A stretch of 64,000 bases of DNA from Methanotrichaceae archaeon (GTDB taxonomy: Archaea; Halobacteriota; Methanosarcinia; Methanotrichales; Methanotrichaceae). The stretch is from NCBI GenBank assembly GCA_963748825.1, contig CAVVKN010000009.1, positions 64,001-128,000 on the forward strand, given 5' to 3'. Below the pieces are notes generated by a model. It was not told the DNA's origin, searched no databases, and was given only the letters and a program-made list of their open reading frames with translations. Shown in pieces: positions 38,002 to 38,474 of the stretch; position 1 is the first letter of the stretch, and every line of letters starts with the position of its first letter. A program made the position numbers and the translations under genes.

Positions 38002-38325
38002 TCAAGAAGTTCCTTTCAGAAATCCCTTGCGCTGCAGCCAGTCCACCTGGGGACCGGTGTATCTCCAGACTACATCGGCCTTATCATTCTGGATTTCCCA
38101 AGGAATGACAATAACCACGTCACCTTGTCTGATCCAGATCCTCTTTTTCATCTTGCCAGGTATGCGGCCCATCCTGGTAACGCCGTCGATGCATCTCACC
38201 CTTATGCGATTGGCTCCAAGCAAACTTTCCACATGACCGAATATTTCTCGATCCTGTTTGCGGGGGAGACGAACTCTGGTAATTACAGCTCCTTCTTCTT
38301 CCCTGCCACGACCTCTATTATACAG
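38002..38325 (-). CDS. eif1a: Translation initiation factor aIF-1A (probable CTG start)
   Basis: [29 protein letters not shown] and WRYT motifs; GAGGTGA SD 4 nt before CTG 38325. Confidence 0.93.
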
Positions 38326-38474
38326 CTTATCACCTCAAATAATAATTATGGACTAAGACTCATGGAATCTTCGGGGTCGCTATTGCCCCGAGTAGCCTAA
38401 GTATCTATCTTTTCGCCCTTACGCGCTAAAAACCACTCTTAAATAGTTAAAGCTTGTGTCGGCCAAAATACAAA

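Follow-up and report, generated by a model that had tools for sequence, protein, structure and literature searches.

A conserved CTG codon behind a long Shine-Dalgarno sequence as the probable, selected weak start of the aIF1A gene in Methanotrichaceae and their phylum

Results

The aIF1A gene and its neighbourhood

The window analysed here, a stretch of 64,000 nucleotides from a Methanotrichaceae archaeon, carries on its minus strand the gene for the translation initiation factor aIF1A (Table 1), which is present in a single copy in the genome. The product belongs to the aIF1A/eIF-1A family, with all profiles matching above their curated cut-offs: Pfam PF01176 (eIF-1a) matches residues 27-88 of the 107-residue product (E 3.7e-23) with 81.4 bits where 30.2 are required, TIGR00523 reaches 142.8 bits (cut-off 102.9) and NF003085 165.9 bits (cut-off 92), and the structure PDB 1jt8 is matched with an E value of 6.3e-39. 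Set beside the family (PF01176; TIGR00523; PDB 1jt8, 4mno and 5jb3), the protein is an ordinary member of typical length (107 residues) with an OB-fold core, and the oddity lies in the start signal of its gene. As originally predicted, aIF1A heads a cluster with a Rio1 kinase gene and a gene for a KH-domain protein, both of which were recognised by Pfam and NCBIfam models. On the other side, a tRNA-Val(CAC) gene lies directly upstream on the same strand, and this linkage is kept across Methanotrichaceae (genus alignment; L100, L102, L107 and L108). ARAGORN also called a 'tmRNA' at 38475-39031 (minus strand), running from the tRNA-Val antisense through uppS, which is almost certainly a false call. 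Elsewhere in the window, NCBIfam models pointed to a DarT/DarG-like toxin-antitoxin pair (a DNA ADP-ribosyltransferase and a glycohydrolase) at 30024-31812 (plus strand), and there is a TumE-like match at 29502-29867.

Table 1. Features of the aIF1A locus and the hemC start, in positions of the window.
Feature	Position	Strand	Evidence or remark
KH-domain protein, universal in archaea (Pno1/Dim2-like)	36622..37164	-	TTG start; Pfam KH_1, KH_PNO1_2nd; TIGR03665, NF010333
Rio1 kinase gene	37170..37976	-	ATG start; 25 nt past the aIF1A stop; Pfam RIO1 E 8e-60; NF041310
aIF1A coding sequence	38002..38325	-	107 codons and a TGA stop (38004-38002); PF01176, TIGR00523, NF003085, PDB 1jt8
RVRLP motif of aIF1A	38277-38263	-	
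CTG, initiation codon of aIF1A	38323..38325	-	Sequence, and conservation in relatives
Spacer AAG	38328-38326	-	3 nt between Shine-Dalgarno sequence and CTG
Shine-Dalgarno sequence GAGGTGAT	38329..38336	-	8 nt complementary to the 16S 3' end; register conserved among relatives
In-frame TGA stop	38337-38335	-	Read in the sequence
Small 5' UTR hairpin CGGGG...CCCCG	38371..38391	-	Predicted fold; not essential
Box CGACACAAGCTTTAACTATTTAAG	38438..38460	-	Nearly invariant in 22 genus loci, with variable flanks
tRNA-Val(CAC)	38475..38548	-	ARAGORN; directly upstream of aIF1A, same strand
hemC start CTG	24003-24005	+	TIGR00212 position 1 aligns there

A long Shine-Dalgarno sequence precedes an in-frame CTG

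Read along the minus strand, the sequence passes from an in-frame TGA through GGT GAT AAG to CTG, and from there through TAT AAT AGA GGT CGT to the RVRLP motif. The original prediction had placed a stop codon ahead of the region, a strong Shine-Dalgarno (SD) sequence before the CTG and no canonical start before RVRLP, and all three were found. The SD, GAGGTGAT, pairs over 8 contiguous bp with the 3' end of the 16S rRNA, which reads GGATCACCTCCT in all four genome copies, and the site is therefore an SD-dependent (leadered) archaeal initiation site. None of the 34 codons between the TGA and a GTG at 38232 is ATG, GTG or TTG, which is why a mechanical list of open reading frames gives a 76-residue product that begins at this GTG. 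As had also been foreseen, such a product would be without RVRLP, and it would lose part of the eIF-1a domain as well. The alignment with NF003085, in which positions 12-108 of the 108 model positions correspond to residues 11-107 of the 110-codon stop-to-stop frame, places the N-terminus of the model at about the CTG. With an SD in front of it and relatives that keep the codon, the CTG is the sole sensible start of aIF1A.

A search of the whole genome (94.9% complete) with ARAGORN returned one initiator tRNA, a tRNA-Met(CAU) with an A1:U72 pair and a GGG/CCC stem, and no initiator-like tRNA with the anticodon CAG, the tRNA-Leu(CAG) genes being ordinary long-arm tRNAs. Given this single ordinary initiator, CUG would be a near-cognate codon for the initiator Met-tRNA and the protein would begin with methionine.

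The start signal is fixed in the genus and the family while its surroundings vary

For loci of the same genus, we found the SD, the 3-nt spacer and the CTG in 22 of 22 full-length sequences, in the form TGA GGT GAT A(A/C)G CTG, and codons close to the CTG vary synonymously (TAT/TAC, AAT/AAC, ATT/ATA). This set leaves out one second copy, two further genomes in which the locus is partial at a contig end, and a 23rd locus (L024, genome G012) whose frame is broken. In L024, as in L082 of the same family, the SD and the CTG are present and the break falls before the aIF1A core, which may reflect an indel error or a true frameshift. Among loci from named Methanotrichaceae, CTG stands at the site in 78 of 80, a count that joins the 75 of 78 parsable loci called by script to a reading by eye of L078, L096 and L106. 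L085 carries ATA at the start site, and in L092, L095, L103 and L104 the spacer codon before the CTG is ATG, which makes their start ambiguous. In 58 of the 78 parsed loci no canonical start occurs before the core. Across the aligned loci the peptide past the CTG diverges freely, in contrast to the SD and its distance from the codon, which are fixed.

Upstream of the start, the genus alignment shows the tRNA, then the box CGACACAAGCTTTAACTATTTAAG, then a variable stretch that is sometimes deleted, and finally an invariant ATTATTATTTGAGGTGATAAGCTGTATAA. Located roughly 115-135 nt ahead of the CTG, this box is probably an archaeal BRE/TATA promoter, from which transcription would be predicted to start near 38415-38420. 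The small hairpin in the 5' UTR shows paired changes in some members of the genus (CGGGA/TCCCG in L009), and its segment is deleted in L004, L012, L017 and L022 (4 of 22 loci). Several other arrangements were considered for this region and rejected. A conserved regulatory RNA structure in the 5' UTR is disfavoured by a fold no better than that of shuffled sequences (z = +0.59) and by the deletion of the middle of the UTR in those 4 loci, and a mini-ORF upstream (ATG 38363-38361, MSLSP) is not conserved in the genus alignment. An AT-rich tract just upstream of the SD could be taken for a second TATA box that yields a leaderless mRNA; the predicted 5' end holds no start codon, and the SD is conserved. 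A leaderless mRNA is disfavoured in general by the presence of the SD, by an RNA-library contig that reaches 82 nt upstream of the CTG and by the promoter-like box farther up.

The RNA data are assembled metatranscriptome (Logan) contigs, a format from which strand, transcript start and expression level are not readable, and they speak for presence in an RNA library, not for transcription or translation. Two contigs of run X1 span 37380-38335 and 38306-38407, the end at 38407 being a weak hint of the transcript start and the gap in cover at 38408-38473 no evidence of a transcript end. The first of these contigs differs from the window at 9 positions, all of them outside the start codon, and thus reads CTG.

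These observations bear on the possibility that the CTG is not the start at all, and that the true start is the GTG at 38232 or an ATT at 38286-38284, or that the codon is an assembly error or is edited to AUG in the RNA. In its favour, some gene callers do give a 76-aa product from the GTG (P0032 and P0092), and the hemL gene of the window is split over three frames, a sign that the assembly carries indel errors or pseudogenes. The GTG, however, deletes RVRLP and part of the eIF-1a domain, the ATT gives way to ATA in some loci and is missing from other families, and more than 170 independent assemblies agree on the CTG, which is also the codon read in an RNA-library contig. We consider this reading largely refuted, and its residual chance is very slight.

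CTG or TTG starts aIF1A across most of the phylum

We drew a sample of 150 genomes of the phylum that were at least 90% complete, added relatives, and read 130 loci from 28 anonymous families, whose best named matches were to Methanosarcinaceae, Methanomicrobiales, MAGs labelled Methanocellales and others. Ten loci in five families have an apparent ATG or GTG start without a convincing SD, and are 44-54% identical to the aIF1A of the window; we infer that these five families are halophiles. Parsing succeeded for all but one of the remaining 120 loci, and the 119 sequences come from 23 families. Their tally combines script calls with a reading by eye of the 20 rows not called CTG, in the course of which some automatic calls were corrected.

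An in-frame CTG, 3-4 nt past an SD-like stretch, was found at 99 of these 119 non-halophile loci and in 20 of the 23 families, the latter being the fairer figure, as the loci include relatives and paralogues and are not independent trials. The other 20 loci comprise TTG (14), ATG (L208), ATT (L178), ATC (L161), a probable CTG (L175) and two without a clear codon (L163 and L205). GTG was found at the start site in none of the 119, and 72 of them have no ATG, GTG or TTG anywhere between the in-frame stop and the core. ATG is thus not the rule among orthologues, and in this respect the original prediction stands. Paralogues fetched from multi-copy genomes all start with CTG or TTG. The ATT and the ATC both belong to aIF1A paralogues of Methanomicrobiales-like families (f23/f14) and occupy the register of the CTG, as GGAGCTGAT TGA ATT in L178 and as GGAGTTGGT GGC ATC in L161. 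At six loci (L143, L162, L170-172 and L177), several of them Methanomicrobiales-like and one from another group, a stop codon directly abuts the CTG (GATTAA CTG).

For Archaeoglobaceae, a named search from one locus of family f5 gave 80 loci, which the script called as CTG in 56, TTG in 14 and ATG in 5; the other five rows were without a script call, and one of them (L320) is ATG by eye. The five Archaeoglobaceae ATG loci all read GGAGGTGAT TGA ATG, in a register identical to that of the CTG elsewhere, and 43 of the 80 loci have no canonical start before the core. This exchange of ATG, CTG and TTG within one fixed register is, in the alignments, the strongest sign that the codon acts as the initiator.

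As a control for chance we counted the leucine codons within the bodies of the same 119 ORFs, where CTG accounts for 208 of 654 (32%) and CTC, CTT, CTA and TTA together for 388 of 654; at two invariant leucine sites of the aIF1A ORFs, CTG is used in 18 of 101 and in 44 of 103 cases. At the start site, none of the 119 loci has CTC, CTT, CTA or TTA in frame; as the script recorded near-cognate codons alone, the seven rows that it scored 'none' were read by eye. Judged from these alignments, a strong SD joined to a weak codon is under purifying selection in SD-using Halobacteriota, with CUG the commonest codon, UUG second and AUG rare.

Weak aIF1A starts also occur in other archaeal phyla

In other phyla, aIF1A loci were located with a degenerate DNA pattern of a conserved motif of the protein, which yielded 96 stretches in species-representative genomes; 80 of them were fetched and were read by eye only. 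Thermococci have GGGGTGAT, then 4 nt, then ATG. In six of their loci (L215, L216, L220, L226, L273 and L294) the SD itself holds an in-frame ATG (GTG ATG CTC ATG), which lies two codons upstream of the ATG corresponding to the N-terminus of the protein. Sulfolobales use TTG (L258, L262 and L281), and Desulfurococcales and other Thermoprotei are mixed, with ATG, GTG, TTG, CTG and ATA, the sequence TGA GCA CTG standing ahead of a lysine-rich N-terminus in one thermoprotean locus (L291). In MAGs of Thermoprotei and Desulfurococcales (L245, L257, L269, L238 and L280), aIF1A apparently starts with ATA after AGAGGTGAG or AAGGGTGAG, and in L245, L257 and L269 the stretch from the in-frame stop to the core is free of ATG, GTG, TTG and CTG. 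The sequence GGTGAT AAA ATA is found in one Iainarchaeota locus, the same register holds ATG or TTG in Micrarchaeota, and the loci of Poseidoniia show long N-terminal extensions. Weak or non-canonical starts of aIF1A would therefore seem to extend past one phylum, yet they are not universal.

Non-canonical starts are uncommon in the genome and include hemC

The original prediction had counted a second CTG start in the window, that of hemC, and this gene does most likely start at a conserved CTG (Table 1). Its first ATG lies 11 codons downstream, within the conserved GSRGSPLA motif. Thirty hemC loci were fetched, two of which yielded no motif. Among the 28 Methanotrichaceae loci read, 24 have CTG, one TTG, one ATG and two CTA, and TTG also stands at the site in a Methanosarcinaceae locus. 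There is no SD near the hemC CTG, which lies 15 nt past the stop of the upstream hemL frame, and its conservation is at the family level only, whereas that of the aIF1A CTG is phylum-wide. The hemL gene (glutamate-1-semialdehyde aminomutase; 22672-24003, plus strand) is distributed over three frames, 22672-23184, 22962-23393 and 23188-24003, which match successive parts of the hemL model, and two frameshifts in a pseudogene or indel errors in the assembly could produce this pattern.

In the genome at large, SD-preceded CTGs ahead of the first canonical codon number 105 of 3104 (3.4%) in ORFs of at least 100 codons, compared with a background of 5895 of 156240 (3.8%) for all such codons and 406 of 3264 (12.4%) for first ATGs. 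Across the genome SD-led CTG is thus not enriched, and starts of this kind are too few for bulk detection. Screens of the genome by SD gave too noisy a signal to single out CTG-started genes one by one. For 31 genes of the window the NCBIfam alignment extends to the N-terminus of the model, and 2 of them, aIF1A and hemC, need a non-canonical start. A random sample of 400 kb held 335 ORFs of at least 180 codons, 215 of which had their first canonical codon at the seventh codon or later; the first 150 of these 215 were scanned, 69 gave Pfam hits, and 4 had a domain that began ahead of the first canonical codon. Of these 4, two look like gene fragments, and the other 2, a DUF434 gene and a dicarboxylate symporter, are plausible cases of non-canonical starts. 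In the DUF434/DUF5616 gene (L421:6004-6729, minus strand; G000:C7) the domain begins 10 codons ahead of any canonical start codon, with a CTG at the point where it begins. The sodium:dicarboxylate symporter (L425:11019-11798, plus strand, which is G000:C25:77529-78308) has its Pfam domain from codon 8 and its first canonical start at codon 33, and likely begins at an ATA right after a TAA, or at a CTG two codons on, behind GGAGGAGAT. Non-canonical starts are, on these small samples, uncommon at roughly 1-6% of testable genes, and they are not unique to aIF1A.

Among the other initiation-factor genes, aIF1, aIF2-alpha, aIF2-beta and aIF5B start with ATG and aIF2-gamma starts with TTG. The aIF1 (SUI1) gene is present as two identical copies about 5 kb apart (G000:C23:17990-18340 and 22982-23332) with identical upstream sequence, in both of which the ATG stands 12 nt past GGAGGT.

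Such cases elsewhere in the genome could mean that the CUG of aIF1A is a tolerated historical accident, an inherited and nearly neutral codon that initiates well enough behind a strong SD, all the more as ATG has replaced CTG in some lineages and the gene was not lost. A neutral site, however, should often drift to ATG or GTG, and what is seen instead is CTG or TTG at 113 of the 119 loci, with a single ATG and no GTG. At the same time, the flanking codons change freely, paralogues keep a weak start, and the comparison with hemC sets a family-level CTG against a phylum-wide one. We regard an accident of this kind as improbable.

Discussion

Our main reading is that the CTG is the real start of aIF1A and that a weak start has been selected on this gene, to which we give a probability of about 0.9. 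A CTG or TTG that is kept over at least 20 families, with ATG and GTG almost absent, is the pattern expected of a selected weak start. The CTG start is already implicit in databases, since the NCBI entries for the protein in relatives (P0014, P0016, P0030 and P0071) have their first residue at the CTG, while other gene callers give truncated or extended forms of aIF1A (P0069 and P0003, in addition to the two 76-aa products from the GTG). We found no paper on the CUG start of aIF1A or on its regulation in the full-text literature, a body of text that excludes most subscription journals.

Precedents for a weak start on the gene of an initiation factor exist in the other two domains of life. The bacterial infC gene, which encodes IF3, has an AUU start codon and is repressed by IF3 itself, a feedback that is proven, and in eukaryotes eIF1, through the poor context of its AUG, and eIF5, through uORFs, are autoregulated by the stringency of start-site selection. 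To our knowledge, regulation of the eIF1/eIF5 kind is not known for eIF1A. Like infC, and as far as the aligned loci tell, aIF1A is an initiation-factor gene with a conserved non-canonical start behind an SD, on a codon disfavoured by the initiation machinery. The two differ in that aIF1A is orthologous to bacterial IF1 and not to IF3, that the codon is CUG and not AUU, that the machinery is of the aIF2 type, and that the feedback is hypothetical here. With eIF1 and eIF5, aIF1A would share a tie between the supply of a factor of the e/aIF1-e/aIF1A pre-initiation complex and a suboptimal start site; the weakness there lies in the AUG context or in uORFs, under scanning, and here it lies in the codon itself, whose position is fixed by the SD.

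On this evidence aIF1A is most probably translated from a CUG placed 3 nt downstream of an unusually long SD, and we hypothesise that the weak codon would keep aIF1A synthesis low and dependent on how strict the pre-initiation complex is against non-AUG codons. Acting jointly on the small subunit, aIF1 and aIF1A would determine this stringency, and the arrangement could then act as negative feedback on, or cross-regulation of, the supply of initiation factors. Archaea would in that case have an equivalent of infC with its AUU codon and of eIF1 with its poor start context. Such stringency-coupled control is to us the most attractive mechanism and a plausible one, with a chance that approaches even odds.

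As a start signal, the site resembles ordinary SD-led initiation in archaea, where an SD complementary to the 16S rRNA positions the start on a leadered mRNA, and departs from ordinary initiation at AUG, GUG or UUG in that one gene has CUG as its regular start throughout a phylum (comparison based on the review PMC7531240). The archaeal start codons named there are AUG, GUG and UUG, and neither 'CUG' nor 'autoregulation' occurs in the text. The same three codons are described as permitted in archaea in PMC4705826, which also reports that archaeal aIF1 rejects AUU, a non-AUG codon, in vitro, and describes joint binding of aIF1 and aIF1A to the 30S subunit. In these passages the discrimination is credited to aIF1, and we found no statement there that aIF1A itself discriminates against non-AUG codons; cross-regulation by aIF1 is thus at least as likely as autoregulation. 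For Methanosarcina mazei, a Ribo-seq study gives CTG as the start of 5% of newly found small ORFs, in a passage that leaves initiation factors unmentioned (PMC11456600).

Apart from the crediting of discrimination to aIF1, two observations count against feedback. Non-canonical starts occur elsewhere in the genome (hemC and the 2 plausible cases among the 69 Pfam-supported ORFs), which suggests that CUG initiation is tolerated in general. The weak codon is also not indispensable, since ATG or GTG serves as the start in Thermococci, in a subclade of Archaeoglobaceae and in the halophile families. Moreover, the CUG could be a true start and nothing but a static limiter, which sets a low fixed rate for aIF1A relative to the co-transcribed genes and involves no feedback from any factor. 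The same conservation data fit this idea, aIF2-gamma likewise has a weak start, and the retention of CTG by most Methanotrichaceae in hemC, an enzyme gene with no link to initiation, means that a weak start need not imply feedback. A weak SD followed by ATG could give a low rate too, yet an SD of 8-9 nt is kept together with a weak codon over at least 20 families, and we infer that a long SD with a weak codon would make the output especially sensitive to codon discrimination. We hold a static limiter to be rather unlikely, and a stronger contender than the historical accident.

If stringency-coupled control does operate, the CUG may be the sensor of an ancient archaeal loop, older than the split of the classes of Halobacteriota and with AUA, CUG and UUG as its equivalents in Thermoproteota, in which aIF1A output would go up when the complex is lax (aIF1 or aIF1A low) and down when it is strict. 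This extension is more tentative than the mechanism itself. If true, all three domains would couple the supply of initiation factors to a deliberately poor start site.

For annotation, callers that are limited to ATG, GTG and TTG truncate aIF1A to 76 residues or mis-extend it, and miss the starts of hemC and of other genes likewise. For the biology of the phylum, one essential and universally conserved gene keeps a CUG that lies outside the named archaeal repertoire of AUG, GUG and UUG, which suggests that initiation at CUG is a normal and selected capacity of the aIF2-type machinery of archaea, itself eukaryote-like in build. The finding also offers a concrete hypothesis on how archaea may balance their initiation factors.
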